DNA of 62,142 nt, the filler included, from Hausera hauseri (lineage: Eukaryota): NCBI GenBank assembly GCA_046269625.1. It is 12 parts of 12 records of this genome, joined end to end, with 100 filler letters (N's around TTAATTAATTAA, not from the genome) between each part and the next. Parts side by side here need not be neighbours in the genome. Positions count along the whole stretch, not along the records: positions 34,754 to 38,820 come from JBJURY010783202.1; 11 more parts are not named here. One strand, given 5' to 3'. Both the position numbers and the translations under genes were made by a program. Below the pieces are notes generated by a model that was not told the DNA's origin, ran no database searches, and saw only the letters and a list, made by a program, of their open reading frames with translations. This document shows, in pieces, positions 4,091-52,062 of the stretch (positions within the stretch are counted from its first letter, which is position 1; each line of letters starts with the position of its first letter).

Positions 4091-5919
4091 GAATGTGATT
4101 ACACAAACGACAGGAAAATTTTTAACCATACGGGCAAATATACGATGTTCATGTAAAAAGTCTGTGTCTATTCGATTTCTAGGCTCGTTGCAAATTTTGC
4201 CGGCTTCAATTAAGACTTTGGCTTCCAACTTAGATAACTACCCATTGACTGAAACGGCTTTTCCTTATGACATTATTAACGGAAAAGGGATTTATCCATA
4301 TACTTCTGCAAAATTTTTCAGCGACTTGCAGTCAATTAAGGACTTGCCACCGAAATGGGACGGTGTGACTGATACCGATTATGAGGAATCACAACTGGTT
4401 TGGTCAAAGTATGGTTGCGGTTCACTTTTGGATTATATGTTGGTGTATATGAAGCTCGACGTCTACTTGTTAAGTGATATCTTTGTACGGTTTAGAAAAG
4501 AGGTTAAGTTGCAGGATGGTTTAGAAGTCGTTAACTTTGTCTCCATTCCAGGTTTAAGTTGGGAAACAGCACTGAAAACCAGTCCTTGTAAGATTGAGCT
4601 TATCCAGGATTCTCAGATGTATCAGTTTTTTCAGCCGGGTATTCGCGGCGGCATGACATTTGTAAATAAACATAGGGTTGTAACAGATGAAAGAACCAGT
4701 CTCTTGTATATAGATGTAAATAATTTATATGGCTGGGCTTTATCGTAACCACTGCCATTTGCGAATTTGGTATTAATATATGATGAGAATAAGTTAAACA
4801 GTCTAGTTGAACAATTGACATATATTGACTGTTAAGGAAAAACGAGGTTTAGTATTTGAAGTGACTGGAGCATTCCTGCTGACAAACATGATAAGTTGGA
4901 TCAACTGCCTCTGGCTCCAATTAATAAATGTCCTCCTAGATCAAAAGTAAAGAAATTGTTGCTAATACATGAGCGAAAGTCCAACTATGTTATTCACTAC
5001 CGCCTCTTACAGTTATATATGGAGTTAGGCGCTGTAGTTGAGAAGGTACATTGGGCCGTTGAGTGTGACCAGGGTTATGAATTTAAGGATTATATCAATC
5101 TAAACACTGCAAAGAGGGCTGCAGCAAATAATCCATTTGAAAAGGATTTATTAAGCTTAAAAACAACAGCTTATACGGTAAAATTCGAAAATTTGCTTAA
5201 TAGGTCAAACCTGAGACTGTAATAATGCTAAAAAGCTAGTTACATATGCTAGTAATGCCCAGTTTAAAGAGTGCATTATAATAGCCGATGATCTGGCTGC
5301 CGTTCTCTTCGATAAAGACATGGTTACATTAGATAGGCCCTCATACATCGGTCAGGCCGTACTTGATCTATCTAAGTTACGGATGTATGAGCTGAATTAT
5401 GTCGACTTGGAGACATAGGCACCAGTTTAATTGTGAGTTAAATATTATTGCTGGTGACACAGATAGTTTCTTCATCGAATGTCGTCGAGTGGACTTAAAA
5501 TCGCAACTGTTACCGGCAATAATAGCAAACGAGCAGTTAGATACATCAAACTATGATAAGACCGATCCACTGTACTCGACTCGTTTCGCAGCTGTAATTG
5601 GCAAATTTAAAGATGAGAGCAAGGGCTGCGTTCATTATCAGGAGGCGATTTTCCTACGGCCGAAGTCATACGCCGTCAAAACCCAAACCAAACCAGTCCT
5701 GAAATGCAAGGGCGTAAATCTCAAGCAGACAGACTTACAGGTCAGTAACTACCAACAGGCTTATGAAACCGGTTGCAGCACCATGGTGGACCAGTAGCGA
5801 ATTGGCAGTAAAAAACATTAGCTGATGACAATCAGTTCAAAAAAGAAAGCACTGCACCCGTCGACGACAAAATCTACTGAATTGAGAAAAACCCGAGTGT
5901 TGCATACGGACATTATTAA
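4091..5919 (+). pseudogene. polB: Polinton/Maverick-type protein-primed DNA polymerase B, copy 1 (divergent subfamily, 5' truncated by contig end)
   Basis: KGIYPY, YMKLDVYLLSDIF, GIRGG, YIDVNNLYGWALS (motif A), IIAGDTDSF (motif C), GKFKDE, LRPKSY. Frameshifts and stops present. Confidence 0.9.
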
Positions 5920-12977: not shown

Positions 12978-15900
12978 AAATGTTCGCAATACCCCATGTA
13001 CTGCGTCTCTCGGATACATGAGGGTGGACAATGTTACAAACAGATGGCACAGTATTATTCAATTGGGGAGGACACTTCCTTGTGTCCAACGTGTAATATT
13101 TCAATGCCCCAATGTCCATACGCCAACTTTTATGAGTTTCAAAAACATCATCTCGGACCGTTTACTCGGTCTAAGAAGATGATGCATGTGCATTGCTCCT
13201 TGTACCCTAGGTATTGTACTAGTAAAGTGCACAACGTTGATGGTTGCCATAGTACAATGGAGCAGTACTATGGCGCCACAACGATGCACGTTAAATGGGC
13301 TTACGTCTATTCCGGTTGTTTTATAGTTGATCAAATCAACTATGAACAATTTTATAATCAGCACAAGGACCACTTTAACCAGTTTCAGAGGTCCAAAAAG
13401 GAAATATTAATGGAGGCAGCAAAAAGCAGTATTCCCTCAACAAGCAGAAAACGTCAAGCATCAACAAGTATTGACGAATACCTGAAAAGCATCAATACAG
13501 AGCATTGGCAGCAGGAGCAGCAGCAGCAGTAACCGCTCATTATTATTAAGTATGACTTAAACATATCGTACGTGGACATAAAAGTAAACAAGTCGGCGAA
13601 ATCAGCAACTCAACTGAGGCATGTATCCTCTCAAGTGCGCAACCGGTTATAAACCGAAGTGGAGAAATTCAAACACCACAACTGCAAAGTGCAATATTAT
13701 GCACTTGCAGAATTTGAGAATCTGCAGGGTAACTGGAAACAATGGTACCTGCCACATCGAGCAGTTCCATATTCCAAAGATTTCATTGACGACATAGGCG
13801 AAAAGCTGGACGAAAAAATCGCCAACTGCACTGAAAAGTCCGTGGTTGGCGAATAATAAAAATTGTCACTCTCGGTTTTATTATAACAAAGTCTAGTGAC
13901 ATAATTTGCCTATCCGGACGTTCATTCATACCGACACCTAAAGCTCAAAAGCACTCTTATGCGGTAGTGAATTTAAAAAACACGGACGATGATTACTGTT
14001 TTATTTACATTATTCTGGTGGTATTAAAATGTGACGAAATGGACAGAAATAGTGCATATCATTCAAGTCATTATCAGCAGTATTTTTTCGAATTTCAATT
14101 CGACGAAAACTGGATGCTGATGAAACTTAAAACCATTCCAACATTTGAACGGCGTAATCCGACGCTGTCAATCAACGTGTTCCGGTACAATACCATAGTT
14201 GAAATATCGGCAGACGAAGTAATTTACAAGAGTTCATATGTGGATATAATCTGTCGAAGTCGGAACACGAATGGACGCACAGTAAATTTGTTATTGTTGG
14301 AGCAGGCAGAAAAATTTCATTACGCGGCTGTAACAAATTTGGACCGACTGTTGAACATGGATCACCATCAGTTTGTCGAAAAACAAATACGTTGGAAATG
14401 GTGTCCTACATGTCCGATTGGCTTCAGATTAGAAACCACGTGGGAAAACATGTGACGCTGTGCAGACAGAATGCATCAGGACCAACAATGTACGTCATGC
14501 CAGTCAAAAAGGAGCTGCGATTTAGTGACTAGTCTAAAACGGACAGTCAAGCATATGTGATATATTCTGATATTTAGGCAATGCTACCACGGCACGACGT
14601 ATACGATCAAAAACATATTCCAATTGNNNNNNNNNNCGTCGAAATGTTGGTTGTCCCAATAAAAGCTGCAGGTCAACCGCAGTATTACATGTTTCACAAC
14701 TGAAACTGGGTGCGTGAATTCCTGCATCATGTGGAAACAATAGTTGAATTGAAAATCGCACCGAGATATCGCAATAACAGCACAAAGCCCTCGGTTTGGA
14801 CAGATAAAGATGAACGCCTGACGTTTGCAGTCACAGAGGAATGTTAGCTGTGCCACAAAATATTACCGTTTGATGCGCAGGAACGACTCATACCGGATCA
14901 CGACCATTTTACCGGTCGATACGTGGGAGCAGCATGTAATTCATGCAATTTAGCGAGGCGTGTGTGGCCATTCCTGCCGGTGATCTTTCATAATTTCCGA
15001 GGTTTTGATTGTCACCATATACTGAAATGGACGATCAACAGATTTCCGCACTGGGAACTGTCTATAATCCCAACAACAATGAAGAAGTACCTGTCCCTGT
15101 CAGCACGCATAAACCGGTTCCAGGTACACTTCCTTGATTCATTGCAATTTCTCAATGAATCACTGGCGAAGCTGGTAAATGCCTTGCCGGACGTGCCGAT
15201 AATCTCAATGCAGTTCTCCGCACATATTGCACGCAGCAAAGGCATATTTCCATATGACTTTGCAACATCATATGACCGACTCTGGACAGCAGAGGAATTA
15301 CCGCCGCGGTGGACAGGCATCACAGAACTTGGATATCATAGAGCACAAGAATCTTGGACAGAGCCAGGCTGTAGAAACATGTTGGATTACATTCTCCAAT
15401 ATCTTAAACTTGACATGTACTTATTGACCGATGTGTTCCAGGAGTTTCGGGCGAAAGCGTTGGCTGAAGATAGGCTGGAGCCACTCAACCTTTATTCCAT
15501 ACCGGGAATGAGTTGGGTATCAGCTCTAATGTCAATGGATCGACATATTGAGCTTCTGCAAGACCCGAAAATGTACCGCATGTTCGATGTTGGTATTCGC
15601 GGCGGCATGACATTTGTCAACAAGCATCAGGTCCATGCTACCGATACCACATCATTGCTGTATATTGATATTAATAACCTGTACGGTTGCGCGCTTTCGA
15701 AACCCTTGTCGTACAGTTCATTCGAATGAGTTGTCAACAGACAAGATCTGGACGGCATAATAGTCAACCTACCACAAGCACACATGGCAGGCTCAGTCGA
15801 ATACCTGATGGAGGTCGATTTTGTGGTAGTAGATTAGGTGCATGACGTTTTCGACGATTTACTGGTTTCACCAATTAGCCAATGTCCATCGGGCTCGAAG

Positions 15901-16578
15901 GTGAGAAAGGTGCTTATGACTCATAAATCCAACCAAAATTACATAGTTCATTTCGACTGTTGCAATTTTACATTTAGTTGGGTGCACGCGTCACACGGCT
16001 ACATCGCGCAATCCGATTTGAACAGGCTCCCATATTCAAGGCGTATATAGATGAAAATTCGGGGAAACGAGCCGCAGCTTGTACAAAGTTCGAAAAGGAC
16101 TAATACCAGCTAGAAAACAATTCTCTGTATGGAAAACAGTGGAGAATCTGAAAAGGCGGCTCAATGTACGCCTATGCAATAGCGAAAAGCAGTTGGTCAC
16201 GTATACGAGTAAGGCGCAGTTTCGGTGGCCAATGCACATTGCCGATGGATTGGTTGCGGTGCTGTTAAACCGACATGAAGTCGTTCTGGACCGGTCAAAT
16301 TACATCGGACAAGTGGTATTAGACCTGAGCAAATTTCGAATGTATGAGCTCCAGTATCGCGATTTGGCACGTTATTGGCAAATGTTCGACGGTTATGAGA
16401 TCAGTATAGTTGCCGGTGATATAGACAGCTTTTGTTTGAGCTGAAAAACGTCAATTGCGACAAATTGCTCCGGCAAATAATGGCAGATTGACTACTGGAC
16501 ACGTCCAACTATCCACCGGATTATCCCTTGTACAGCAGCGCGATCACCAACAAAATTGGCTGCTTCAAGGTTGAAAGT
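12978..16578 (+). pseudogene. polB: Polinton-type pPolB, copy 3, including Cys/His-rich N-terminal extension; preceded by an intron (~12876-12977)
   Basis: One broken frame runs from KCSQYPMYC through NLKNTDDDYCF, FERRNPTLSINVF, DHDHFTGRYVGAACNSCNL, FHNFRGFDCH, KGIFPYDF, YIDINNLYG and VAGDIDSF. GTAAG donor and TTCAG acceptor. Confidence 0.92.
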
Positions 16579-20757: not shown

Positions 20758-23700
20758 ATTGGAGTAGAAGTTGGAATTGTATTAGGCGCAAGCGTGAAGG
20801 TGGAAGATGAAACAGAGGTGCTGGTGGAGAGAGGAAAAGAGATAGGAATTGAAGAAAAAAGAGGAGGAAATTGCGAAGCGGAAATGAAAGAGGTAAAATA
20901 CGATGTGTGAGGAGAAAGGGAGGACGAAAACTCCGAAGATAAGGAAGGTGTAAAAGGAGAAAGAGAGAGAGAGACAGAGAAGACGACGAAAAGAGGCAAA
21001 GCGGAAAAGAGCAGGAAGATGGAGAAGGCGAAGGAAAGTAGTTGGAAGGTGGTATACAAGAGGCTGGAATGATGAAAGCGGTAGATGGAGAGATTGGTGA
21101 AATCGAAGTGGTGTTTGGCAGAAGAGGTTTTGTAAAAGGAGAAAGCAAGTTGTCACCAGGGGATGGAGGAGTGTTAAAAGTCTTGAAGGTGCAAAATCGG
21201 ATGGAGAAAAAGAGGCTGAACTGTCCAAAAAAATTCAAGTAGAAGTCTTGGGAGGAAACGTAGGGAAAAGTGGATTAAGAAATTGAGCAGAGATGGAAGG
21301 TGAATTGTTGGATTGCTACGCGGCGTGTAAAGATGGTGGTGGAGAATTGGTTTCGATGGGAGACATATCGTCAATGAAGAAAACCTGCTTAGCGTTGTTG
21401 ATGTGGGCTGTTACTTCTTTGTCGTCCGTGAGAATGATGATGTTGTAAGAGTGTAAACAAATTACTTTGTAAGGGCTAACATACTGAGGTTGAAAACCAC
21501 ACGACGTCTGATTCTTCAGCCATACGAACATGGCAGTATATAAATCATTGGGTATGTAAAATTTATTTCCGTTTAATAGTCTACAAAATGAGTCGTTGCT
21601 GATCGCAACGAAGTGCCTCTGAGCCGCTTGTATGGTTTCGTCTGTAGGAATATTGTCCATCTCAGCCAGCTCGAATAATGATCTGATATAGGTGCCAAAT
21701 AATGCTTCTGCAGGTGAACAGCTTGTAGACGTAGATGGTGTGTTCTGCCAGCCAAGCAGAACGTACGGAAGGAGTGTGATCCAACTGCAATTGGACTCAG
21801 CAAGGATTTTGAGAGACGTTTTCGTTGTTCCGTGAAAACGTTCGAGAAACCCATTCGATTGGGGATGATATGGTGAGGTGTGCATGTGATTAATTTCCAA
21901 TCGATTGACAAGAGCTTTAAACAGGTTGGATTTAAACTGTGGGTCTTGGTCCGAAATGGTGTGGCGAGGTGATCCAAACCTGCTGATCCAAGTGCGGATA
22001 AAAACGTCTGCGATTGTTTCTGTGTTGGTGTTGCTAAGCGGGACAGCCTCTGGCCATCGTAAGAAACGGACCATCATTATGAGGATGAAATGATGACCGT
22101 TGTCTAAGGGTAGTGGGCCTACAATGTCAATGTGAACAGATTCAAAACGAGACGTGCAGGGAAAATAATATAGTGGTGGCTTTAAGTGCTTAGTAACTTT
22201 GTATTTTTGGCGTGCCACATACTGCCTAATCCATGCCTGCATATCAGAGCGCATCGACGGCCATACTACTAGGGGTTGTAAGAGTCGAAAAATGGCCTTG
22301 GCACCGGGATGATGCAACGAATAGATGTTGTTGAATGCTTCTTTTTGAAACGATTCAGAAAGGATGACTTTATGATTATTAGATTTGGAGGTGTCAAAGG
22401 CCACACCGTCGATGGAATTGCACGATTTAAAAGATTTAAGGATGTCAAGAGGTGGCTGGTTTTGTTGAAGTTTGGATTGAGGGAAAATTTGTGCAAAATC
22501 AATCGATCTGACCGATCGGGACAAAAAATCAGCTACTAAATTGTCGACTCCGTTTAGGTGCTTAATTTCAAAATTAAATGTGGACAAATACGATATTCGT
22601 TTCTGCTAACGTGGAGAAGACGATTTCATGGTGAGAATTTGAAGCAAGGGTTTGTGGTCCGTTTGTATTGTAAAGGTTCGTGCGGTTAACAGCTGCTTAA
22701 AGTGTTTAACGGCAAGGACCATTGCAAGCAACTCTCTGTCAAAGGTGGAATATCTTTGCTCTTGTGCTGTAAATTTTCAAGAGAAGAATTTTAATGGCAC
22801 ATTGGATCCATTTTTAACTTGGCGGAGGATAGCACCTGCAGCTGTTGTGGATGCATCCGTGGTTAAGAAGAGTTCTGCATGGGAGTAGGAATAGGCCAGG
22901 ATTTTCACGATTTTTAGATTATCTTTGAGGTGATCGAAAGCGTTGACTAGGTTGGCGGTCCACTGAATAGGCTGTTTTTTCTTGCCAGAGCTTAATGATG
23001 CAAATGGAGCGGTTAGAGTGGAGCAGTGTGGAATATGCTTATGAATAAAGTGCAAGGTTCCGAGGAAAGAACGTATCTCTGTTTATGTACGTGGTAGCTG
23101 TATGGTTTTGAGCTGTGTGATGAGCTCTGGCTGAGGTAAATGTCCGGAGGAGCTAATAACATATCCTAGGAAGTTGACCTTATGTTGGAAAATATAGAAT
23201 TTGTCCAAATTAATTTGCAAATTGTTTTGGTGCAAGCGCTGGACGATTAGACGTAAGTGTTCGGAGTGTTGTTTCGAGAAAGATGATGCAATTAGGATAT
23301 CATAAATACAGGGATAAGCAAAGTTTAAACCTAAGAGAACTATATCTATATGCCTTTGGAAGGTCTGGGAAACGCTACGGAGTCCAAATGGCATGAAAAG
23401 GTATTCGAAAAGGCCGAAATGTGTAATGACAGCCGTTTTCGGAATGTCTGATGGGGCCACCGGAATTTGGTGGTATGCTTTGTGTAAATCAATGCAGGAA
23501 AAGATGGTCGAACCATGGAGCCTGTGAAGGATGTGGTTGATTAATGGTAGAGGGTAGGCATCCATTGTTTTTATGATATTGAGTTGGCGGTAATCACCGC
23601 ATGCGCGAAAGGTACCACCTTTTTTGGAACCACATGAAATGGTGAAGACCAGTGGATTTGGATCTTCTGATTATTCCTGATCTTTCCAGTTCAAGAAACT

Positions 23701-25960
23701 CAGCCTCCACTGCCTGTCTGCAACGAGGCGATAGCGGGCGGACCTCCTGATGTATGGGTCTTTGATGTGCTGTTACTATGTGACGGAAGGTGGATTGATG
23801 TGGTATGAATGATTTGTCCTTTTGCAGCAGAGACGTTCAGGACGATGAAAATTTATCCGATGATGTAGATGCATCGTGACTGGATACAGCTGCGATATGA
23901 GTTATAGACGAGGTGCTGTGACTGGATGGTATTTTGTGCAGGATATTTGTGTTGAAGATGGTGTTTGCAGCTGTGCTATTAGTAATTGGTGCCTCGCAGT
24001 TGGCAATATCGTATTTGTCACCGTAGTAAAAATTTCTGTATATTGTATGATTATAAAAATAATTTAAATCAGAAGTCGTTTGCTTCAGTATTGACTTGTT
24101 GGAAGCGATCGCCGGAGTTGTCATCGAAATGCTGCTAATTTGATTAAGATTATTTTCGCACTTTAAGGAACATAGTTTGTAATTTACAAGTAAATTGTAG
24201 TGGGACAGAAAGTCTGGACCCAATATGGGTGTGCGTACATTGGCTTTTGTAAATTTCCATGTGAATGTGTTTGGAAAGTGTGGAAGTGTGAACATTAATT
24301 TGGTAACTCCACAAATTTGTGAAGGTTCACCGGACGCAGTGAACAGTTGCTTTTTTGAAGTGAAATTGTTTTGGATGTGTTGTGTTGGTGGCAGTAGAGA
24401 GATTGCTGCGCCGGTGTCTATAAGAAAGTTAATGTTTTGCTTTGTTGGAGTGACAACTGCTGCTTCCAACGTGAATACAGCAAAGGAATTGTGTCGGCTA
24501 TCTTTTTGCAGGTTGTTGCCTTTGCTAAGACATACTGTGTGTCCTAGCGGCGAAATCAATTTTTTGTAGTTGGTGAGTTTGGCCTACTGTGCTGTGTAAA
24601 TTTAGTAGTGTTGGTTTTATTGTGTGTATTGTAGTTACAGCCAAATAGGCATTTTTGTGCTTTTGTTCCAAATTTTGAGTGATAAATGCAAAGGATGTTG
24701 CTTGTATTAAAATCAAGGCAGTAAAATTTACAATTAATGCAGCATTTCTGAGCATTGTTACCAAATTTGTTATGATAATAGCAAATAGATGATCGCGCGG
24801 GCGAAGGCGATCGTCTTTGACGTTGATTAAATACATAGAGGAAGCAGCCCTAGAAAAACCCCGTTGAGGCAGCGTTAGGTCATTCAATTTTTCGTTTATG
24901 TTGTTAAGTGTCTTCTGTAAAATTTCATTTTCCGTGCATAATTGCGCAATTTGTTGCTGCAGCATTGAATTTTATTGTTGTTGGTTTGTTGTTAATGCTG
25001 CAGAGACAGTTGGTGTTGTTTGTGAGTGCAGTCTTTATATGCTTTGTCTGGCAATTCGGCTAGCTTGTCCAGAGTCGTGGAGTCTTCGACCATATTGAGC
25101 AAAGCTCTTATTTGAAGGGGCAACGCATTTAAGAAGTAGCGGCGAATAAGTTCTGGACTATGCTCAGATGTTACGCCAAGGGTGTTGAGGTGAGACAAGG
25201 ATGTGTGTAAGAATTCTAAAGGCTTCTGAAGGCCCATGGCGTTATCGTTGAAGAACCTTTGAATGATTGAATCGATTGAAGGCTCAGTAAGCTTGAGAAC
25301 TGCATTATAAAATTGAGTATATGGGTCAGTGTGATGAAGGATATCGATGATATTGGTAATTTTAGTTTTGATGGAAGCTGGCAAGTGGAAAAAGAGGCTG
25401 TTGGCTTTGGATAAAGAGTCGACGACGTTTTGTGATTGGAGCCAAAACTGGTGCAGTTTTAGCCAAGTTTGAGTTGAGTTTTGGCTGTCGAGGAAGTATT
25501 CTGTGCAGGGTGAATGAGTGAGGATGGTGTGTTATGTCGGGGCGTTGAAGCACTTTGTTTGGGTAAGTAAATGATGGGGATCTGTGGTTTGGTGAGTTTG
25601 TCCATGTTATCAATTGTGGGTGAAGAATTCATGCCACCACGGATAAGGAAGTGAATATGAAAGCAGACGCAAGTTGCAGAAGGTTCGAGGGGTTTAGCGA
25701 AAAGCACGGCAGATCCATTTTATGTGAGGTAGAAGTCAAGAGTGGAGTAAAGTAGAGACGTTGTGAATGGCCACGGTGTAGGTGTAGTGCTGTGTGTATA
25801 TATTTGTTGTTTAAAAAAAGGAAGATGGAGTAGGGAGAGGTGATATGCCTGGGGGTGTTGTGGGGCGGCAGCGAAAGGCGCCGCCAAACCCAATAGCAAG
25901 GGTGGGCGTCCGAAGCCATAGCCTCCCCTCGGTGGGTCCCAAATTTCGGGGTGACCGAAG
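20758..25960 (-). mobile_element. Near-complete internal region of a Ty3/Gypsy element (family B): gag, PR, RT, RH, IN; decayed
   Basis: FLIDTGA (PR), YPLPLI, IDLHKAYHQIP, MPFGL, TTDAS (RH), VHIDIVGPLP...YHPQSNG (IN). Pyrimidine-rich 3' tail; degenerate PBS-like TCGGTCACCCCG near 25950. Confidence 0.93.
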
Positions 25961-26495: not shown

Positions 26496-27894
26496 TTTTA
26501 CTGGTGAGAGCACCGCCACACTCAATGAGCAGTTTGGAAATCATACTTTTGTCTTGGTCGTCCGCTTGACTCTTCTCATCAACAATCGTTTGGCCAAATG
26601 TTATCTTTAATAACGTTCGAAAATGTCCTTGTCTTGCAAATACCGAAAAAGAATAATTCACTTGTCAAACAACGCATCGATGTCTTGATCACTAATACTT
26701 TTGTCCCTTGTTTCAGTTTGTCATCGATAAACAATGTCAGATATTCCGGTGATGGAAATTCTGGTTGATAAAAAGTTCAGAATCGGAATTGATCTGATTT
26801 TTGAACAGCTGATTGTTTGCTAAGGCGTTCGTCAACAAACCATTGGCACGATATCGCAAATAAATTTATTTTTGTATTTAATTCTGTGGAGGTTTATCAT
26901 CTACAACGATTTTCCGGCCCTACTCCCGTAGTAAACGACTGATGCAGATGCTCACTTTCGTCAGACCAGAATCAACTCGTTTTAATAAAGTATACATTAA
27001 TCTAATTTCCGAATACTTTTTATTGCTTAGCAAATGAGTCAGACCAGAATTTTCATTATTTACAATTCGCTCCAAATGGTTTTTGATTGATTCGTCGTTG
27101 AGAACTTCGATAATTTTCGATTCGGTTGTTGAATTGAGAAATTCACGAGCACGTTTCGATTCTTCTTCGATAATTTTATTCACTTGATATATACAAATTC
27201 GACGGATTTGCACTTAATAATCGATCACTCTACGATCGATAAAAATCCCTACTTTGATCCAAGAAAAATGTTTCGAAATCATTTTCGTAAATATTTAATT
27301 TATCAACACCTAATTGGACAAGCATTTTACAGGCATCGCGAAGTTGTTTCCGGGGTATGAAATCACCGTTTCGTTCTCGCTTAACCATATCCAACAATGC
27401 CGACCGCAAATGACAACGCATGGGACCGAAAAGTAACACCACATCGCGAAAGATAATCAATTCAGTATTATAAGCATTCGGTTTGTCTGTATAAGCAACA
27501 TAAATTCGATCCATGTACATGATAATATCCCTGATCATAAACATAGCGGTTGCATGATGTTTTGAACATCGATTTAAATGAGCCAAAAAGTTATTATTCA
27601 ATCTCTCGTGCACTTCATCTCTAATTTTACGCCTATGATCGGTAATAACAGCCTTGGTACCGTTATACAATTGCTCACCATTTTTTGTAACACCATTGTG
27701 TATGCATTTTGATATAATTCCTCAAAACTCAATCTGCTTTTATTTTTACGCTGTATTTCAATAATAGCTCCTTTTAAAACTTCCCAAATTTCCCAAACAG
27801 ATTGATCACTCATCGACGTAGGAAGTGGTTTTATACGCATTTTACACGGATTTGAATTATACGATGAATCTAATTTACGAATATTTCGGGACAT
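26495..27894 (-). pseudogene. CUL3: Cullin-3 N-terminal ~two thirds, intronless, decayed
   Basis: [65 protein letters not shown]. Stops and frameshifts present. Confidence 0.93.
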
Positions 27895-30632: not shown

Positions 30633-33600
30633 CTAAGTGCCCCTATTCTAATTTATCCAGATATGACTAAGCCATTTATACTAGCAATTGATGCAAGTAA
30701 TTATGGAGTTGGAACAGTACTGTCATAGAAAGGTGAAGATGGTAAGGAACATACAATTGCTTATGCGTCAAGAAAGTTAAACAAGCATCAAAGGAAATAT
30801 GGCGTTATTGAAAAAGAATTGTCAGCAGTAATATTTGCGCTAGAAGTGTTCTCATCTTACATTAGCAAAAATAAGCCTTTAGATATATATACCGATCACC
30901 GATAGTTACAGTGGCTGAAAAAGCATGAGAATCCTCAAAACGTCAGCCTTATACATTACACTTCCAATATAAACCGAGTACACGAAATGCGAATGTGGAC
31001 TATCCATCAAGTATGCCTCAAGAAGAAAACGAAAAGAAGTAAGAGCGGCGGTATGGAGCATGGATGGATCCATAGAAAAGATAAATGAGAATCAACGGTA
31101 AGATGAAAAGGTAAGAGCAATCAGGAACTTTATCCAAAGTAAAATAATACCCACGGATAGAGAATTAGCTCGTCACGTAGCCAGATTTGGTGATGCCTAC
31201 GAAGAAAAGGACGGATTTTTGTATTATATTCATCAAAATGGGCCAACACTAGTAATTGCAGAAAAGAATAGAGTAGTTTTATTAACTCAACAGCACTGTG
31301 TATTATTAGGTGGACATCAGTCAGTAAGAAAGACGATAAACAAGTTGAAAAGAAAATACTTATGGCCAACTATAACCCAACATGTTCAAAACTTGTGCGA
31401 TAGTTGTAAACTATGCGCCACTCGAAAGAATACCGGATCCAAATTTAAGGCTCCTCTGAAAGTATGGGATAATGCTCCTGCTCCATTCGAATTTACCGCG
31501 ATGGATATAACAGGACACTTACCATTAACAAGAAATGGAAATAGGTATATTCTCATGTTCATAGATTATTTCACTCAATTGGTAGTGGCTTTACCAATGC
31601 AAGACATGAAGGCAGATTATGGAGCCCCACGGATAATATTAACAGATCAAGCATCAAACCTAACCGGCAATGTGATGCAAGCCATATATGACATCATGAG
31701 AATACTAAAATTGCGGTCAACCCCCGGACACCGGGAAAATAACGGAATGGTGAAAAGATATTGGTGATTTGAAAAATAATGAAAAACAGTCGTTAGTCCT
31801 AGGCAAGATGACTGGAATGAGTATATTAATGCATGTGTCTTTGTGAACCGGACATCAGTGCACGAATCTACGAAGGAGACGCCATTATACATAATGTATT
31901 TAAGAGATCCTAGATTACCAATCGACCTGGACTTTAATGTGCGACCAACATCACATTTAATGGAGGTAAAAGAGTATAAACAATTAATGCAAGAATGGTT
32001 AAAATTAGCCTGAGTTAGTGAAGGATAATCAAAAAGATTAAAACTAAGTATAAAAAGTATTACGATGAGAAAACCAAACTACCTAAAGTTAAAGTAGGAG
32101 ATGAGGTGATGTTGTATACACCACTAAGTAAAAAGGGAAAAAGATCCAAATTAGACAGATCAAATAAAGGACCATATAAAGTAGAAAAAGTAGATTTCCC
32201 CAATGTCTACCTCAAGAAAGATCATGTGATATCCAAAGTTCACATCAATAGATGTAAACCGGCCGCTAAAGGAAATAAACTTAGGGAAGATGAACAAGAC
32301 TTTGTTAGGTGGATAGTAAGTAAATCAGAAGAGGCCTTTAACGTAAAATATGTTTTCTAGTACTAATTCTCGTGCTGATGCCTTGTATATTAACGCAAAT
32401 GACTGATCAAGAGATACAAAAAGCAAAGATTCGTCATTCAATTGCCATATCTGAGTACTTGCTATTAAAGAATATACGATGTCAAATTCAATATACTAAA
32501 ACAGGCCAGAAATGTGTGAAGTTTTCCGTAACAACCCAAATGCCACTTCAATATATCGTCGGAATCCAGATCAGACACTGGCAGCCTAATTTGAAGAATC
32601 CTATGGAACGTAAATACGACTATGTATTAAGTCATTGGAAAATAGAAACAGACGGCATAATCGAACAATCATGTATGAACGAAATATATGATACAGTAAT
32701 AAAAACAAGGTGACTATCGAAGTCAATATACAAGAAAAATAAGATCCATATCCATCCGTAACCGGCATGGAATGAATGAAACCCAATTGGGCATAATAAT
32801 AATCGGTTAAATATTAATTAGGTCCATTGGATTCAAAAGTGGACAATGTTGTATTGAAGTGACTAGTAAAATAAGATTAGAGCACATATGATGGATAACG
32901 GTACACATTAAAGAAGAATCGTGTAAAAAATTACCGATTAAATGTTACATAACCCATGAGCAACAGCAGACTTGTAACGTAAGGAAAAGTCTATAACGTA
33001 AAGTATACGTTAACACAAAAGGAATGCGGGTTACTCCGAAATAAATTAAGGGCAAATGGTCTAACAATGTACGATATGAGTTCTATAGAATTTGGCGAAA
33101 AAGAAATAAACGTCACGACACCGCCATCCAATTCTTCGCTAATAAATAGCCATAATAAAAGTAACGAAAGGGAAATGACTATTTTGATTCAACCCCACGC
33201 CTCATATTATCGACAAAGCGCTTCATTTGGGAGAATGTAACTATAACCACTGCTCCAACGACTGATAATTGCAATCAAGCCACACTTGGACTTCTATAAA
33301 GTGAAATTCACCTGTAAAATCCAGCAGGCGATAGTAGACCAAGGTATAATAACCCATGATGATCTGATAGTCCCTTGTGCTGCCTTAACTCCGAATACTA
33401 AGTATACAGTTACACAACATCTCTACGATAACAACAATAAGGTAACGTCTACAAAAATTCTCACAGCATTCACTAAAATGTAACATACAAAACCCCAATA
33501 GAGAAAAATTAATGTTAAGGACATAACAACTTTGAAACCTTTACGACCAGCATACAAACATTCACGTATAGGAATGATATTAATAGGTTCCAAAGTACCT

Positions 33601-34653
33601 ATAACATTTATAATAATGGTATTAGTAACGATCAAAATAATAATTTGCCAACGAAAAAGAAAACAAGGCTGGGTTCGCATTAATATGCGTGATCTAACGA
33701 ATCCGTTAGACACAGACAATCCCAGCTGACGGTTAATCATAGGAAATGCTGTCTAACCAACCTCAGACACAGAGATAACCCAATTTCATCTGGTTACTTC
33801 CCCATATAAATTCTATGAAAATAAAACCATGACGATTACCAAAATGATGTGTATGATAACCGTTGTGTTGTGTTTAAGTACCGTTTTTGAAAAAACATTG
33901 ACTATCTCATTTCTAATATCCGCATCAACGTTGCATCCAATCCAGTCGATCACTAGATCCAAGCATTGGTATAGCAATGCGAAGAACCATCTCATTAACG
34001 AGAATTCAACCTATTAATACCATGTGATTCACAACGAATATACAGTCAGCCTAAATTACCAACAGACACAACAAATACCAAATAACCTTAAAGGTGATAG
34101 TATGGCGAATAGATCATTAGCTCTACTACAAATAACGAAAACAACCTCCTTCTATGTTACTGATATAATCTTATTCCTAGAACAATTCCAGTAAATGAAT
34201 ATCTACTGCATATCTGGACAGTTCCACATCAAAACCACCGATAAGAAAACACGGATAAAAGAAGACCTGATCAATATAGATCCAGAACACGGTATCGCAT
34301 TCGACTTTACCTTCATCAAAAGGAACACGTTGAAAATTCGATCTCTCACCATTCGAATAATGTTCGTCTTCGAGATAATAAAAGAAAAAAAATTTCTACC
34401 CAGTTTACCAGAAAGGAAGTATTTTAACCTTCCGGAACCGGAGTACATCAAATACAAAATGACTGCATAGAGAAGAATTGAAAAAGTATCTTATGATGAC
34501 TTGGACACAGCAGCTGTGAACCTAGCCTGTGACCAATGGAATCAGTTACAACCGACTGAAGCCTCAATAATCACTCTCAGTGGAAATACCCTTTTCTATA
34601 GTATCATCACCCCGAGGTAACGCATTAATAACTTTGATACTCATCTAACGGGT
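30633..34653 (+). mobile_element. Ty3/Gypsy element (family C): RH, IN, env-position membrane-protein ORF and further 3' coding remnants
   Basis: FILAIDASNYGVG, EKELSAV, GGHQ..K..YLWP..C..C, AMDITG, GPYKV. After these come a signal-peptide-like FLVLILVLMPCILT and a TM near 33570-33650. Confidence 0.88.
32350..33729 (+). pseudogene. Env-position type-I membrane protein with FN3/Ig-like domains (decayed)
   Basis: Signal peptide, Cys-containing beta-rich segments, ALTPNTKYTVTQ (FN3-like LxPxTxY), TM followed by QRKRK; homologous to 37180-38590. Confidence 0.65.
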
Positions 34654-34753
34654 NNNNNNNNNNNNNNNNNNNNNNNNNNNNNNNNNNNNNNNNNNNNTTA
34701 ATTAATTAANNNNNNNNNNNNNNNNNNNNNNNNNNNNNNNNNNNNNNNNNNNN

Positions 34754-37700
34754 GTAAAGGAGGCTTTAGACAGACTATCAGGACCGAAATAGTTTACCAC
34801 TATCAACTTACAATCGGGATACTGGCAAGTGGAAATCGAAGAAGGAGATCGATACAAGATCGCGTTCAAAACACACGATGGCGTATACGAATTTAATGCC
34901 CTTCGGTATCACTACCGGACCAGCTATTTTCACTAGAATGATGAACAAAATGCTTATGGGACTCGGTCATGCATTTGCGTACTTAGACGACGTGATTATA
35001 GCATCAAAAACGGAAGAGGAACACTTAAAGGACATTGAGGATACGCTCATGCACCTGGAACAAGCAGGGCTGAAATTAAATCCAAAGAAATGTAAATGGG
35101 CACAAAATGTAGTATCATACCTCGGATATATAGTAGGAGAAGGAGGATCAAAACCAGATAAATCTTTGCTAAATAAAATATCTGATTGCATGGAGCTTCA
35201 GAATCAAAAAGAGTTAAGACATTGGTTAGGCTTATGCGGATACTATGCCACTTACGTACCAGACAATTCGAAAATTAACGCGCCATTATACCGACTGCTT
35301 AAGAAAAGGACTAAATGGAAATGGACGAAAGTGGAGCAAAAAGCATTCTATGAAATGAAGAAAATTTTGACGAGCGAACCAGTTTTAAGATATCCTGATT
35401 TTAACCTGTCATTCATCATTAAAACAGATGCAAGTAAAGAGGGCATAGGATATGATTTAGATCAGAAACGAGAAGATGAAGAATTAGAACATCCAATAGC
35501 CCATAGAGGACGTTTGTTAAAGAAAGCAGAACAAAAATAAGCAGTCACTGAATTAGAAACGTTATCCGTAAATGAAGCACTACGACACTTTAATGTCTAT
35601 ATTTATGGACAAAGGATCGTAATAGTAACCGACCACAAAGCGGTTACGACATTGAAAGGACGAGCTAATAACCCTACATGTAGATTGAATCGTTGGATTG
35701 AAGAAATTTCTCAATATAACATCAAATTCCGATATAAACCAGGCAACAAACACGTCGACGCCGATGCACTATCAAGACTTAAGACAAAAACGAGCGCAAT
35801 CACCACAAATAAAAAGCCACAACTCGAACAACTGATCGAACGACAAAGAACTCTAACAATGAACAAGACGATTTGAATCACAGCCAAACAAGCTAAGAAT
35901 ATGATTATTCAGAAAATTGTTGAGTTCGCACAAAATTTCAAAATGGCCGAAGGACGACAATTGAAGAAGCATTGACAAAAACACGGACATAAATATCGCG
36001 CTTCGAACCAAAATAATTTACTATATTACGAACGAAAAGGAAGAAAGCTAATGGTCATTCCAAAAGGGTTACGCACCGAAGTACTCATGGCTGAACATGA
36101 TTCGTATTTAGCTGGACACATGTCTTGGAAGAAGACATTGGAAAAGATATTAAATAAATACTACTGGCCAAGCATTTATATTGATGTAAAAAATTGGGTA
36201 AGTGCTTGCGAAGTTTGCGCAACAAAGCAAAAGAAAACGAAAAGCTACATAGCAGAATTAAAACCCATAAACGTGCCATACAGACCCATGCAAGCTATAT
36301 CTATGGATATAGTAGGACCCCTGCTTAAAACTCTCAAAAATAACAGATATATTCTACCATGCGTGGATCGGTTAACGCACTTTGTCGAACTAGTAGCGCT
36401 ATTAGATCAAAATACAGAAACTTTAGCCGACACAGTGGTAAGGAAAATCATCTACAGATACGGACCACCAGAACAAATCTTAACGGATAGAGGAAGAAAT
36501 TTCACAAGCGAATTATTCGAAAAAATTATCAAAATATTCGAAATTGAACGTTTAACCACTACCGCGTACCACCACCAATGTAATGAAATGGTTGAACGAA
36601 TGAACGCAACAGTCATTCGGATACTATCAACAGTAGTGGCCAAAGATTAAAAAGATTCGGATGAATTTCTAGAAGGAACACAGTTCGCGATTAATACAAC
36701 TCCACATCCAGCCACGGGATTCACACCGTTCTTCATGATGTATGGACGAGAGGCAATCTTACCTACAGATCTAGGTATGACACCGTATGAAAAGAACCTT
36801 GAGGATCTAGAGCAAAACTTTGCCGAAGTCTTACAGACAAGATTGCAAAAGTGTTGGGAAGTCGCAAAAGCATTATTACTCGAATACCAGGAACAATTTA
36901 AAAAACAATATGATAAAAAGACTAAATCCCATGACCTGAAAAAGGGAAACTGGGTTTATATACATTACCCAATCACGACGAAACATACATCCTTGAAATT
37001 AACGCGTACCGGAAGAAAACCACATGAACTCGTCCGTACAACATCGACCACGGTCTATATTAATAAAAACGGTAAAAAAGAAATCATGTCAATACAAAGA
37101 GTAGTTAAGACAGATATAAGACCAACCAAACGCTACAATTTAAAACAGCGAGAAGCCAAGACATCGGCAGTTGTCATCAGACCGGTATCTTACGCTCAGA
37201 TAATAGTATTGCTGCTCTAACGCCAAAGTCTAACGCCCAATGGTGGATCGATGAAACTTCGTTAAGTGATATATATGGAATGAGGAAAAGAGGACTAAAA
37301 CTTTTACCGGCAAGGAAGGAAATTCCAGAACACAAATCAGAACAAAAAGACAAAAAATTCTTGCGAGCAATAAAATTAGATTATTTTTCGCCAGAAGTCC
37401 CATGTGTCGGGTTTAGGTTACCAGGACCATACGCAGGGAAAATTCAAATACTATTTCATAACCTATTAAGCCAAGCCGAATCTGATTCTATATATGAACC
37501 AGAAGACGATACAGCTTGCTGCAACGTAGAGTATGGACATTTTTACACCCTCAGCTATCGTGCATATTTACCGAACTGTAATGAATTACACTTTGAAATC
37601 AATCTGAAGTCATATTTAGTTATACCACAAACGTATGAAGATTATATTAATATAGAGACGGAAGACTTGTTTTAATCCATTGATCCATTAAAACGAATGC

Positions 37701-38820
37701 TAGAAGAAAATGTAGCTAGTATAACGGAAAACCCAAGGGACAAATGTATCCAGATAAACACAAAAGGACGATTAATTAAGGAACAAGTAATCACAGTTCA
37801 ATTCACAAGAGAGGACAAGGAAGCTCCTAATCAACAATACTGTCAAATTGACGTCGAAAGACCGAATAAGTGTTGTAAGTTACCTCCAGGACATAAATAT
37901 CGAATCCGGTTAGACCTATATGAAATTCGACCAAGTCAGCCGAGTATTTATTTAGGAAGTTATAAATTTGAAAATCTAATCCAAGGAATTTCACCTCAAA
38001 TAACGACAAGTAGAATTACGACTACAAAAACGAATGTGACTACTTCAACTTCTACCAAAATCCTTCAGACAAGTGGATTATCTCAGAAGAATCTAGAAAT
38101 AATTCCGATAAAATATTGGAAACAACAACATGAAATAACGTTCATCGTGGAAGAAGCACTTAATTACTATGTAGAAATAAGCTGCCGAACATTATACAAT
38201 AATCAGAAAATCACATTGGCCAAAGGTAACTATCGAATCAAATGCACCTACTTGAAACCTAAAAACGACTACATAATACAAATAGATGCAGAGAACAAAC
38301 AAAGTAGAACATTTACGGTACAAACCTTAAGTGAGATTTTCTTAACTGAACCACCAACTAAGGAGGAGACGGGAGACGAAATGACGACTACCATTAAAAC
38401 AAAAAATTTAATTAAATGGACATCTTTGTCATTAATATCGATTATTGGAACGTCAATATTTGCTCTCATAATTTTGATTGCGTTTTGTCCATTGACTGCC
38501 TAAAACTGTTATAATAAGCGTCATAAAACAACTGAGAGGGAATTAGGGGCGATTGTACCACAGGATGAAATCAATAATGTAATAATTTGACAATTACAGG
38601 TTGGGTTATTCCACCATCTAACAAGGAATTGGTTCAGATTTAAAACAATACTTTGTTATAGGATTGACACTTATTTCATATTTTTCTTCAGAATGGTAAG
38701 TACGAACAGCCAAATTAGTGTCGACGAATTCCTACGAGGATACGCAACAGTCTTCATCCCAAAGACGAAAGCCATATACAGAAGAATAAATGACGCATTA
38801 CAAACAGAAACGTACGCCGA
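34754..38820 (+). mobile_element. Ty3/Gypsy element (family D): RT, RH, IN, env-position ORF, start of a fourth ORF
   Basis: MPFGI, AYLDDVII, IKTDAS, HVDADALSR, HD..AGH...YYWP..C..C, SMDIVGPL, TDRGRNF. Confidence 0.93.
37180..38590 (+). pseudogene. Env-position type-I membrane protein: signal peptide, ~3 beta-sandwich/FN3-like domains, Thr-rich linker, TM, short tail
   Basis: ORFs 37280-37675 and 37697-38503 share one frame (single TAA between them). Motifs LPPGHKYRIRL and LKPKNDYIIQI; TTSRITTTKTNVTTSTST; TM SLSLISIIGTSIFALIILIAFC. Confidence 0.72.
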
Positions 38821-38920
38821 NNNNNNNNNNNNNNNNNNNNNNNNNNNNNNNNNNNNNNNNNNNNTTAATTAATTAANNNNNNNNNNNNNNNNNNNNNNNN
38901 NNNNNNNNNNNNNNNNNNNN

Positions 38921-40293: not shown

Positions 40294-40501
40294 CAAATTA
40301 GTAATGCACAGCCTACATTATTGCACAATGACAATTCTTATTGAACAACAAATCAAATCAATTCTAAAAATAGAAATATGTATGACGTACACTGCCAACT
40401 TTGCAATGAGATGTTTTTTTTCACATTTCTAATTTGAATAATGAATGTTTAGTATGATTGATTTAATCTTGTTAACATTTTATATTAATAATATTTTTTA
40501 G

Positions 40502-41891
40502 TTCATTAATACGGAATTACAATCGGTTGAATTTATTTATCATTCCAAAAAGTGAACCAGATAATGACAGATATCTGTGCAGTATTTGTGAAGATATTCT
40601 CATGGATCCATGTCAGTCGATCGATGGCATTCGATATTGCTCTACATGCATTTCAGATATCGACAAAGATGACAGTTCATTGAAACAGTTTATGAAAGAC
40701 AGAGCAATTGAAAAGGAAATATTAAATTTATATATCCGTTGTATTCATTAAAATTGTACAGAAATCGTTCAGTTCCGATGTCTCACTGACCATTTAATCG
40801 TATGTCCATATCGAAACGTGTATTGCAAATACTGCAAGGAAAATTATCAATTAATACACGAGAATGATCATATGCAGAATCAGTGTCAATTATAACCAGT
40901 CAATTGCAGTTTTTGTGGATTGTCGATGACGAGAATAGATTACGAACGCCATCATTTGAATCCGAATGGTGACATGGACAGTATTTGCATCAAATGAAAG
41001 GGAATTTGTCCATTCAATTGCAGTATAATAGAACATGATAGTATTTTGCAACATTTATCCAACTGCGAGAATAGATTGGAAGATTGCACACTGAAACGAT
41101 TGGGTTGTGAGAAAAGACTGAAAAGACGAGATCTGAACGATCATTTGTATTTTGAATCAAGCGGTCATCTCCGAATGGTCATTGATGAAATAATTCGAAT
41201 GGAAACGGAAAACGAACAGTGTCGGAAATTATTTCGCGAAAAAGAACAGGAAATCTGTCGAACTGTCGTCCAGCTGAAACAAATAAATACGGAATTAGAA
41301 TGTCAAGTAGATTGTTTGAAAAAGGTCGTTGAAGAGAAGTCCAAAGAACTCCATACAGTGAAGTTGGAAATAAACAAGTACAAAGAATTGTTTGAAGAAG
41401 TGAATTTCATCGATAGTTTAACGAGGTCACTAAATGTTGACGGGGAATTCAATTGGACTGTGGAGAATATTCGAGAGAAAATTAGCAAAGCCCAATCTGA
41501 TGGACAGAATTGTTTGACGAGCGAGCCGTTTTATACGAAACCGATGGGTTATCGAATGCATTTAAAAATGTATCCTAATGGAGATGGAAAAGGGAAAAAT
41601 ACGCATTTATCCGTTTATTTCAGTTTGATGAAAGGCGATTTTGATGAGCGACTGTCGTGGCCATTCAAACAGCCGGTCACGTTGAGAGTGAAGAATAAGC
41701 GAAAGGAACAGGATGTCGTTGTTAGCATGAGACCAGATGATAACGATAATTGTTATGGTAGACCGTTGACGGAATCAAATATTGGTGCTGGATTGTCAGA
41801 ATTTGTACCGTTAACGGAGTTATTGTATCGCGATGATTTTTTGCACAATGGGGCAATCATCATTTCAGCTTCTGTATCGAACAATTTCTAA
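40502..41891 (+). pseudogene. TRAF: TNF receptor-associated factor (degenerate RING, TRAF zinc fingers, coiled coil, MATH)
   Basis: YLCSICEDILMDP; SEPFYTKPMGYRMHLKMYPNGDGKGKNTHLSVYFSLMKGDFD..LSWPF. One frame with stops at 40749, 40893 and 40995. Confidence 0.9.
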
Positions 41892-50227: not shown

Positions 50228-51596
50228 GAACGACAGATATAATACTTGTCGGCATTTACCTTTGACATAAAACATATTCATTGGGTTAATAATTTGGATG
50301 CCGACTTTTTATCTAGGTCGGTTAATTCGATTAATTTTTCACCGATTTTTACACAAGCTCAACTTCAACAGAACGAGCTACCTCAAGACATGCTTAATTC
50401 TTTCAAGTCTTGAACAATTGTTAACTGCGTGGCTTTAGACACTTCCAAACCAGGTTATTCCATATTAATTCTCTCACTATCATTGCAAAGGCAAGCATTT
50501 AATAGCGTACATTGGCTACACCACCCTGGTGCTAAAGCCACTTTTCCTTTACTCCATAGACAAGTAATACAGCCGTCAATGCGTCACTGCATATCGCGTT
50601 TAGAGTACGTGCATATTGATATTGTTGGCCCTCTTCCTCCAGATAACGGCCATCAATTTATTCGCACCATGATGGACCATTCCTCACGATGGCCAGAAGC
50701 CATCCCTCTGCGGAGCACAAACACCGATACCATAGCTGACGTTTTTATTCGCACATGGATTAGCAGTTTTGGATCACATCGCTTCATCATCACGGACCAG
50801 GGTCCACAGTTTGAATCCAACCTGTTCAAATCTCTTGTTAACCTATTGGGGATCCATCACATTCCTACTACGCCTTACCATCCCCAATCGAATGGCCTCC
50901 TAGAACACTTCCAACGAACATTGAAAACGTCACTAAGAATCCTGGCAGAGTCCAACACTAGTTGGACGCACCTTCTTCCGTTTGTTCTGCTTGGCTGGCG
51001 TAGCACTACGTCTACTTCTACGGGATGTTCACCTACTGAAGCCTTATTCGGAGCTCCCGTACGACCATTGTTCGACCTAACTGCCCTAGACGACACTCTT
51101 ACAGATGAAACGATACGAGCAGCGTAAAATCAATTCTTCACGGTCAGAAAAGATTCGTTCGGCAGGATATTTCACAAAGACAAAACATATTTACCCGAAG
51201 ACATGTATTTAGCAAAATTCATATGGCTAAAAAATTAGACGCCGTGCGGTTTTCAGCCGCGGTATCTGGGGCCCTATAAACTGATACAGTTGCATTCACA
51301 TAATACTGCTATCTATAAAGACGGCAAAGAACTTACAGTACATATTATCAACTTAAAGCCCGCCTTCTTTGTCGACGACACTTCACCAATCGATACGTCA
51401 ACCTCTTTTCTCACTCCTGCGCTTTCTGCTCTTCCTTTATCCGTTGCTAAACCAGTTTCACCTCCTCCTTCTTCCTCTATTTCTGCTTTATCATTTTCCA
51501 CACCTTCTACTTCTATTCCTATTTCTCTTCCTTTATCTATCTGTCCCTCTGTCTCATTTTCTACTTCTACTCTTTCGCCTAACACAATTCCAATTT
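50228..51596 (+). mobile_element. Gypsy family B integrase and 3' tail, second copy with internal deletions
   Basis: VHIDIVGPLPPDNGH...YHPQSNGLLE; colinear with the reverse complement of 20760-22600. Confidence 0.9.
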
Positions 51597-52062
51597 CTGA
51601 ATACGGAAATTCTTTTGGAGCAACATTTAATGATATAATATAAAGTGATAAATCTTTTTGAGGATAATAATGTTGCAAATTTTTCGAAGCTGATATTTCG
51701 ATCTTATTAAGATCTTCGTCAGAGCACTATGTGTTTCTTTTATATTAGTGTGTACAAATGATCTTAATTTTATCCTNNNNNNNNNNNNNNNNNNNNNNNN
51801 NNNNNNNNNNNNNNNNNNNNTTAATTAATTAANNNNNNNNNNNNNNNNNNNNNNNNNNNNNNNNNNNNNNNNNNNNCGTTTGTCTACTGTTTACAATGAA
51901 AGCAAACCGGTTGGAACAAATTTGGTCGCTGGCTTCATTGGACGTTTGCCTATTGTTTATATAATGGCAAGCCGGGTGGTACATTGTTTACAATGAAAAT
52001 AAACAGATTTGACCAAATTTGGTATAAATATGGATGTCATTACATTTCACTTTGTCTCTAAA

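Follow-up and report, generated by a model that had tools for sequence, protein, structure and literature searches.

In the main text of the Chary and Hayashi survey, which used F and gB baits, the envelope (env) genes of invertebrate Gypsy elements ('errantiviruses') are of the F type or the HSV/gB type (HSV, herpes simplex virus) only, and the words 'fibronectin' and 'immunoglobulin' do not occur (PMC13524379). In F-type env, a furin site precedes a hydrophobic fusion peptide (PMC5408684). The third open reading frames (ORFs) described in the main text of the same source for long terminal repeat (LTR) elements of bdelloids encode F-type env, transmembrane (TM) proteins of 210-230 amino acids (aa), GDSL esterases, and DEDDy nucleases; 'fibronectin' does not occur there (PMC5408684). 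In env-less Drosophila elements (MDG1 group, sORF2/FAST-like), cell-to-cell passage proceeds via a small membrane protein (10.1101/2025.03.14.642691). In CrocERV31, a vertebrate endogenous retrovirus, a captured nectin-3 with three immunoglobulin (Ig)-superfamily domains replaces env, for which the authors speculate an aid to infection; KIT-ligand is described there as a captured host ligand carried by retroelements (PMC4299795). Here, we describe element A, a decayed Ty3/Gypsy element of Hausera hauseri (GenBank assembly GCA_046269625.1), whose third ORF is predicted to encode a membrane protein with fibronectin type III (FN3)-like domains. The element lies in a 62,142-nucleotide stretch, hereafter the window, which consists of 12 short repeat-rich contigs chained by N-TTAATTAATTAA-N linkers. 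Because the linkers join contigs, the contigs on either side of a linker are not true neighbors.

Our analysis supports the presence, in the env position of element A, of a gene for a receptor-like FN3/Ig-type single-pass membrane protein that is multi-copy and linked to integrase. The arrangement is that of env-carrying Ty3/gypsy elements, in which pol precedes a third ORF that encodes a signal peptide, ectodomain, TM segment, and tail (PMC13524379). Unlike F-type and gB-type env in that source, the product here has neither furin site nor fusion peptide, and its ectodomain of ~365 residues appears to consist of tandem beta-sandwiches (PMC13524379). It resembles sORF2, which has been linked to cell-to-cell spread, in being a non-classical-Env membrane protein encoded past pol; whereas sORF2 is short and fusogen-like, this protein has ~470 residues, a cleavable signal peptide, and a large ectodomain that is predicted to be folded (10.1101/2025.03.14.642691). 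As in bdelloid elements, where non-env genes, among them genes for TM proteins without known homology, often occupy the env position, the position is taken by something other than a classical env (PMC5408684). The nearest precedent is nectin-3 in CrocERV31, likewise an adhesion-type membrane protein in the place of env (PMC4299795). However, that case is a recent capture in a vertebrate retrovirus, ~76% identical to the host gene (PMC4299795). The present gene belongs to a Ty3/Gypsy element and is predicted to encode FN3-like domains, identity within its family is only ~33-47%, and a host source is not recognizable.

What is preserved of element A is an internal 3' part on a 4.1 kb contig (34754..38820, + strand; JBJURY010783202.1), bounded by linkers at 34654-34753 and 38821-38920 and cut at both ends. 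By Pfam, pol has the Ty3/Gypsy order of reverse transcriptase (RT), RNase H, and integrase, with a single RNase H. The C-terminal half of RT, with YLDD, lies at 34866..35135 (+; RVT_1, E 2.7e-20), RNase H at 35322..35717 (+; RT_RNaseH_2, E 1.2e-18, and RT_RNaseH, E 5.2e-12) with one stop inside (35538), and the integrase zinc-binding and core domains at 36057..36572 (+; Integrase_H2C2, E 9.5e-20, and rve, E 5.5e-13). The integrase C-terminal region, read from the translation and ORF list, follows at 36573..37178 (+), with one stop (36648). The best PDB sequence match of this pol is Ty3-G Gag-Pol (E 1.6e-68), and foamy integrase matches at 1e-20. Stops interrupt the pol frame at 35538, 35874, 35973, and 36648 before the frame ends at 37218, and this copy is dead on account of those four internal stops. 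Gag, protease, and both LTRs fall beyond the contig, which stops 230 bases past the third ORF, so that no LTR is visible.

A preliminary description of this locus had proposed that integrase is directly followed by a ~460-codon region with a signal peptide (AQIIVLLL.TPKSNA), three Cys-containing segments, two L-x-P-x-x-x-Y motifs, a Thr-rich linker, one TM segment, and a short tail. All of these features were recovered. The third ORF is directly 3' of pol, and its ~460 codons encode, in order, the signal peptide, domains 1 and 2, the linker, domain 3, the TM segment, and the tail. Over the 451 codons of 37238-38590, one frame shows 3 stops (at 37673 and at 38501, plus the end stop at 38588) as compared to 25-42 in each of the five others; the second internal stop sits just past the TM segment. 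No intron interrupts the 1.4 kb of the ORF. The read-through product, with X at both internal stops, is termed P0001 and contains 12 Cys. The signal peptide (37179..37237, +) was judged from hydropathy and from a homolog, P0002. The pol frame supplies its codons RPVSYAQIIVLLL (37179-37217), with the hydrophobic core, and the next frame supplies those of the cleavage site, TPKSNA/Q (the slash marks the point of cleavage); one frame change falls near 37211-37220. By eye, the segment matches the N-terminus of P0002 (RPISYAQILLAL...TQA/QW). Within 37109-37220, the pol frame enters the signal-peptide codons without a stop, which may reflect either fusion to pol or decay; P0002 is called as a separate protein.

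The mature protein would begin with an N-terminal segment (37238..37360, +) in which alignment A1 shows a conserved W..D..D[IV]YG[MI]R followed by a charged stretch. Domain 1 (37361..37618, +) contains cysteines and is related to domain 2 in a profile comparison (E 3.1e-5, probability 73%). Domain 2 (37676..37966, +), which a stop at 37673-37675 precedes, has four conserved Cys in the pattern C-x31-C-x9-CC, an L-x-P-x-x-x-Y motif, and a predicted beta-sandwich. The linker (37985..38077, +) was assigned by its Thr/Ser-rich composition, Ser/Thr reaching 53% over 30 residues of P0001 (from residue 258) and 47% and 50% in the two homologs. Domain 3 (38081..38338, +), with two conserved Cys, is FN3-like by profile and fold matches; the two L-x-P-x-x-x-Y motifs of P0001 are at residues 223 and 347. 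The single TM helix (38420..38488, +) corresponds to the one hydrophobic TM segment in P0001 (residues 407-425, KD19 2.7), and the short cytoplasmic tail (38489..38590, +) has a stop inside (38501-38503) and the end stop at 38588-38590.

A full HMMER scan of 1.84 billion representative proteins returned two relatives at E<=0.001, P0002 and P0003, each of which forms a single-member ENA cluster; their contigs measure 4,939 and 16,242 bp, respectively. P0002 is uninterrupted at 479 aa and matches over its whole length with 33% identity (E 2.4e-56); P0003 is a 189-aa C-terminal part with 47% identity (E 2.6e-33). The signal peptide of P0002 matches the pol-frame codons of the window (RPISYAQI vs RPVSYAQI), and 4/4 domain 2 Cys, 2/2 domain 3 Cys, the same linker, the TM segment, and the tail are all retained. 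An open frame and cysteines kept at 33% identity suggest selection on the protein. Word-index protein searches with P0001 gave 0 of 3377 candidates near its length and 0 of 235 shorter ones, and alignment A1 recovered only P0002 of 4464; no loci for the homologs were found in JGI metagenome contigs or viral contigs. Both homologs close with Y-x-x-I-T (P0002 475-478, P0003 185-188) after an R-V-V-R-E stretch; the tail of the window copy is divergent.

Two public runs, X1 and X2, contain the sequence, and at 80% likeness contigs cover 30/30 bins in both; no RNA data containing it are listed among public runs. Among the 16 matches listed (13,527 further), 10 are contig pieces in the third ORF, eight of which have 14-18% other letters and two of which are identical to the window. 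Contigs that differ from the window at 38121 number 49 in X1 and 6 in X2, and contigs of X1 bridge the integrase tail and the ORF start, from 37139 to 37208 (shorter side, 82 letters) and from 37154 to 37208 (51 letters). The diverged copies and the bridging contigs indicate a multi-copy gene whose tie to pol recurs in other copies. The ORF that the preliminary description assigned to the element is therefore present in further copies of it, some of them joined to integrase. Since each run includes a piece with exactly the sequence of the window, either could come from the source organism; the copies speak for a single family within one host rather than for breadth.

In both runs, summed contig depth climbs to pol-like values just past the third ORF (38562-38697); in X1 it is 12,016 there, as compared to 273-1,935 across the body of the ORF. 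Summed contig depth was not taken as copy number. Contig depth cannot rank parts, but the rise is a hint of a segment that is shared widely, be it the start of an LTR, a cis signal, or the next gene. Neither Rfam nor Pfam gave a match for this segment, and Rfam had no match across 30633-38820. A pyrimidine run, AG, ATG, and GTAAGT occur near 38680-38703, and a sequence scan of element A detected no purine run of at least 10 in 38480-38820.

A second, divergent Gypsy element on a neighboring contig of the window, element B, has a comparable arrangement. Its RNase H and integrase (30636..32360, +) were identified by Pfam (Integrase_H2C2, E 2.6e-14) and tblastn, and the integrases of elements A and B are 32% identical. 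Directly adjoining integrase is a heavily decayed third ORF (32342..33730, +) with a signal-peptide-like start, domain-2-like and domain-3-like stretches, a TM segment, and a basic tail. The D2 (32823-32975) and D3 (33295-33438) profiles have their best non-self matches here among 72 contig frames, in the right order (E 0.42 and 0.09), and the whole-profile domain match has an E of 0.006. A frameshift-tolerant comparison gave a score of 51, which is the best non-self value among 144 windows and above 60/60 triplet shuffles (mean 31, standard deviation 4.3). The third ORF of element B is thus likely a distant homolog of the element A gene as judged from sequence, and the weak collinear match makes it likely that the gene is older than the split between A and B. 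A further ORF with a signal-peptide-like start begins ~100 bases past the TM gene of element B (33829..34653, +; translation). It is decayed, with three stops and few cysteines, is cut by the contig end, and has no Pfam, PDB-sequence, or PHROG match. This ORF could encode a second secreted or surface protein, or a fusion partner, and the FN3-like gene consequently need not be the sole surface protein. In element A, a frame is open from 38591 to the contig end; the downstream sequences of A and B, both of which are cut, have no mutual similarity.

The fold was examined with a model that spans domain 2, the linker, and domain 3 and was built on the 4-row alignment A3, from which a misaligned element B fragment present in A2 had been dropped. 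A single-sequence model of P0001 was unusable (pLDDT 36), the TM helix being its sole confident part. In the 4-row model, pLDDT per 10-residue block is 70-82 in domain 2 (model residues 11-80) and mostly 57-70 in domain 3. Six strands are modeled in domain 2, with the last strand missing, and five in domain 3; the sole helix has 9 residues. Foldseek against PDB ranks tandem FN3 proteins first (fibronectin, the gp130/IL-6 receptor complex, IL-31R, neogenin, and Tie2), with seven at E<=0.001 and a best value of 2.4e-4. In the VIA comparison, domain 3 matches FN3 chains with Z 6-7.2 and a root-mean-square deviation (rmsd) of ~3 A (2.4-3.4 A) over ~70-80 residues, and FN3/Ig-like matches overall have Z 6-7.6 and rmsd 2.4-3.5 A over 69-82 residues. 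A 3-row profile searched against PDB sequences gave three matches at E<=10, all of them Tie2 FN3 fragments, the best at 0.0013 in domain 3. Language-model neighbors (Atlas) are mostly FN3 membrane proteins at 0.82-0.88, all under 0.9, and serve as leads only. P0001 alone has no PDB sequence match, no PHROG match, and no Pfam match above cut-off (NRG2_N, E 0.16).

In the model, domain 3 has the FN3 (s-type Ig) beta-sandwich topology together with L-x-P-x-x-x-Y, which in FN3 domains precedes the tyrosine corner, and the agreement is weaker for domain 2. An FN3-like beta-sandwich is accordingly a fairly secure prediction for domain 3 and a likely one for domain 2; domain 1 may be FN3-like by its relatedness to domain 2. 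The fold that the preliminary description had anticipated is supported by the moderate-confidence model for domains 2-3, with no known fusogen among the fold matches listed, and not for domain 1, which is not confidently folded. Similarity to cellular FN3 receptors (Tie2, gp130, neogenin, fibronectin repeats) extends to best fold and profile matches and to type I topology. Unlike those receptors, to which identity is 7-18%, the protein has sub-cut-off Pfam fn3 scores, its own cysteine pattern, and no kinase or long signaling tail.

The same preliminary description saw no viral fusogen motifs, and this observation stands: an R-x-K/R-R furin site is absent from P0001, P0002, and P0003, in which only R-x-x-R occurs, in the cytoplasmic tails. 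Between the signal peptide and the TM segment of these three proteins, there is no strong hydrophobic segment of the fusion-peptide type save one predicted P0002 strand (KD11 1.7), and the combination of furin site and fusion peptide that characterizes F-type env is thus missing. With respect to the long trimeric coiled coil of F-type (class I) env, the modeled domains 2-3 contain a 9-residue helix at most, and the N-terminal third is without a confident model. In comparison with class III gB, whose ectodomain has five domains, the model favors tandem beta-sandwiches with moderate confidence, domain 1 being unmodeled. Class II fusogens (phlebovirus Gc, alphavirus E1) have an elongated domain II with a hydrophobic fusion loop. 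Domains 1-2 form a tandem repeat in which no hydrophobic loop stands out, although fold searches cannot exclude the class II family. No known fusogen is among the matches listed in the fold searches of the domains 2-3 model, an absence that excludes no family. A viral structure library gave no match at E<=0.001; phage tail and FN3 proteins make up most of its top rows, and a fragment of a salmon alphavirus polyprotein ranks 47th (E 0.06). The short TM protein with a tiny ectodomain that typifies sORF2/FAST is not what is encoded here, as the homolog has 479 aa with ~390 residues outside the membrane. The layout of distal disulfide-braced domains, Thr-rich stalk, membrane-proximal FN3, and short tail is that of a receptor or adhesion molecule.

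These data allow us to outline how such a gene might act. The third gene of this decayed Ty3/Gypsy element would encode a single-pass membrane protein with an outer part of three predicted FN3-like domains. As a separate product, it would enter the secretory pathway and reach the surface of the producing cell or of budding particles, where two disulfide-braced distal domains may be held out on a Thr-rich, probably O-glycosylated stalk. The protein might then bind a host surface ligand and bring capsids next to a target cell, probably of the germline; uptake or membrane merger could come from host endocytosis, from contacts between cells, or from a further protein of the element. The gene, its layout, and its link to pol are observed and the fold is predicted; that the protein is displayed, binds, and has a part in spread is our inference from gene position and precedent. 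We judge the chances about even that this is an old element-borne FN3-type surface protein with an attachment or adhesion role that does not itself fuse membranes. More tentatively, it may be that in an old animal Ty3/Gypsy lineage an FN3 adhesion molecule constitutes a third kind of large env-position protein, one that docks particles or producer cells either without a viral fusogen or with an adjoining partner. Of the earlier interpretation, the receptor-like FN3/Ig-type protein in the env position is upheld by the fold, the profile, the copies, and the missing furin site, whereas an infectious retrovirus and capture from the host, whose source gene is not recognizable, find no support here.

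Several observations weigh against this interpretation. P0002 and P0003 are known as proteins alone and are only putative products of Gypsy elements, and X1 and X2 are not independent lineages. The LTR is not visible and downstream ORFs are cut off. Homology to element B is weak, the score of 51 comparing with 45.8 for the next-best unrelated window and a shuffle maximum of 46.7. The fold model is moderate in confidence (mean pLDDT 57, pTM 0.35, 4 rows), all Z scores are below 8, FN3 is tied with the bacterial Ig-like DUF3244 (Z 7.3-7.6), and domain 1 is without a confident fold. Pfam fn3 (PF00041) stays below its cut-off, with P0003 at 13 bits vs 25 (E 0.12) and no match for P0001 or P0002, and domains 1-3 are no formal members of that family. 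The predicted fold by itself says nothing on function.

The protein could instead be a receptor mimic or decoy that alters host signaling or immunity, or that blocks re-entry of related elements, with no direct part in transmission. Ectodomains of cytokine receptors and of a receptor kinase (gp130, IL-31R, Tie2) are among the top fold matches, and both homologs end in Y-x-x-I, a possible sorting or signaling motif. However, Y-x-x-I is found in viral Env tails too. The WSxWS motif that marks class I cytokine receptors is absent from P0001-P0003 (read by eye), identity to any receptor is 7-18%, and the position and size are those of env. Retroelements with captured host ligands such as KIT-ligand provide a precedent for such a function (PMC4299795). 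On balance, we regard a decoy as doubtful.

A two-protein envelope, in which the FN3-like protein is the receptor-binding half and the following ORF encodes the fusion partner, appears unlikely. Models for it are alphavirus E2 and the paramyxovirus attachment proteins, and both elements offer candidates: the signal-peptide ORF ~100 bases past the TM gene of element B (33829 onward) and the open frame of element A from 38591 to the contig end. Nevertheless, the element B ORF is poor in cysteines and is without a match in Pfam, PDB-sequence, or PHROG searches, and the downstream sequences of A and B, both cut, are dissimilar. It is very unlikely that the protein itself represents a structurally new type of fusogen. 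A place in the env position of two divergent elements and a conserved aromatic N-terminal motif past the signal cleavage site would suit a fusogen, but the furin site, hydrophobic fusion peptide or loop, and long helix (in the modeled part) are all wanting, and compact tandem domains on a Thr-rich stalk are a receptor layout. Slightest of all is the prospect of a host gene or retrocopy lying beside a Gypsy fragment by chance: hosts commonly produce type I membrane proteins with FN3 domains, the LTR is unseen, and the homologs are known without DNA context, but the 1.4 kb has no intron, the signal-peptide codons overlap the pol frame, many diverged copies exist along with contigs that join integrase to the ORF, and element B has the same arrangement.

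Other contigs of the window carry unrelated features. A TRAF-type gene or pseudogene (~40500-41891, +), intron-poor and with zf-TRAF, coiled coil, and MATH by Pfam, lies on a separate contig, and a CUL3-like fragment (27230-27721, -) has human Cullin-3 as its best match (E 8e-45) and is possibly a retrocopy. Judged from their sequences, these two genes suggest that the host is an animal. Decayed fragments of protein-primed DNA polymerase B, alike among themselves, occur at 4092-5797, 8251-10925, 13835-16444, and 52929-55407; Pfam DNA_pol_B_2 was found in three of the four tested, and they likely derive from Polinton-like or adenovirus-like endogenous elements. Another Gypsy family, with a DUF7041 gag-like region, RT, and integrase, is present at 21316-25531 (-) and 50414-51643 (+). 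Its two loci are ~75% alike over 468 bases and have no obvious third ORF past integrase.

The literature search, with Repbase reports, supplements, and most subscription papers outside its scope, turned up no account of a third ORF of the FN3 kind in a Gypsy element, and a Ty3/Gypsy third ORF for an FN3-like type I membrane protein is likely undescribed. If the proposed interpretation is true, the FN3 receptor-like gene, conserved and multi-copy and placed alike in two elements with integrases only 32% identical, would represent a third, non-viral kind of Gypsy env-position gene, one that fusogen-baited searches miss. The vertebrate precedent, nectin-3 in CrocERV31, limits the surprise. Such a gene would separate attachment from fusion, and would raise the question of whether adhesion alone can take a retrotransposon from cell to cell, one stage in the passage from transposon to virus.

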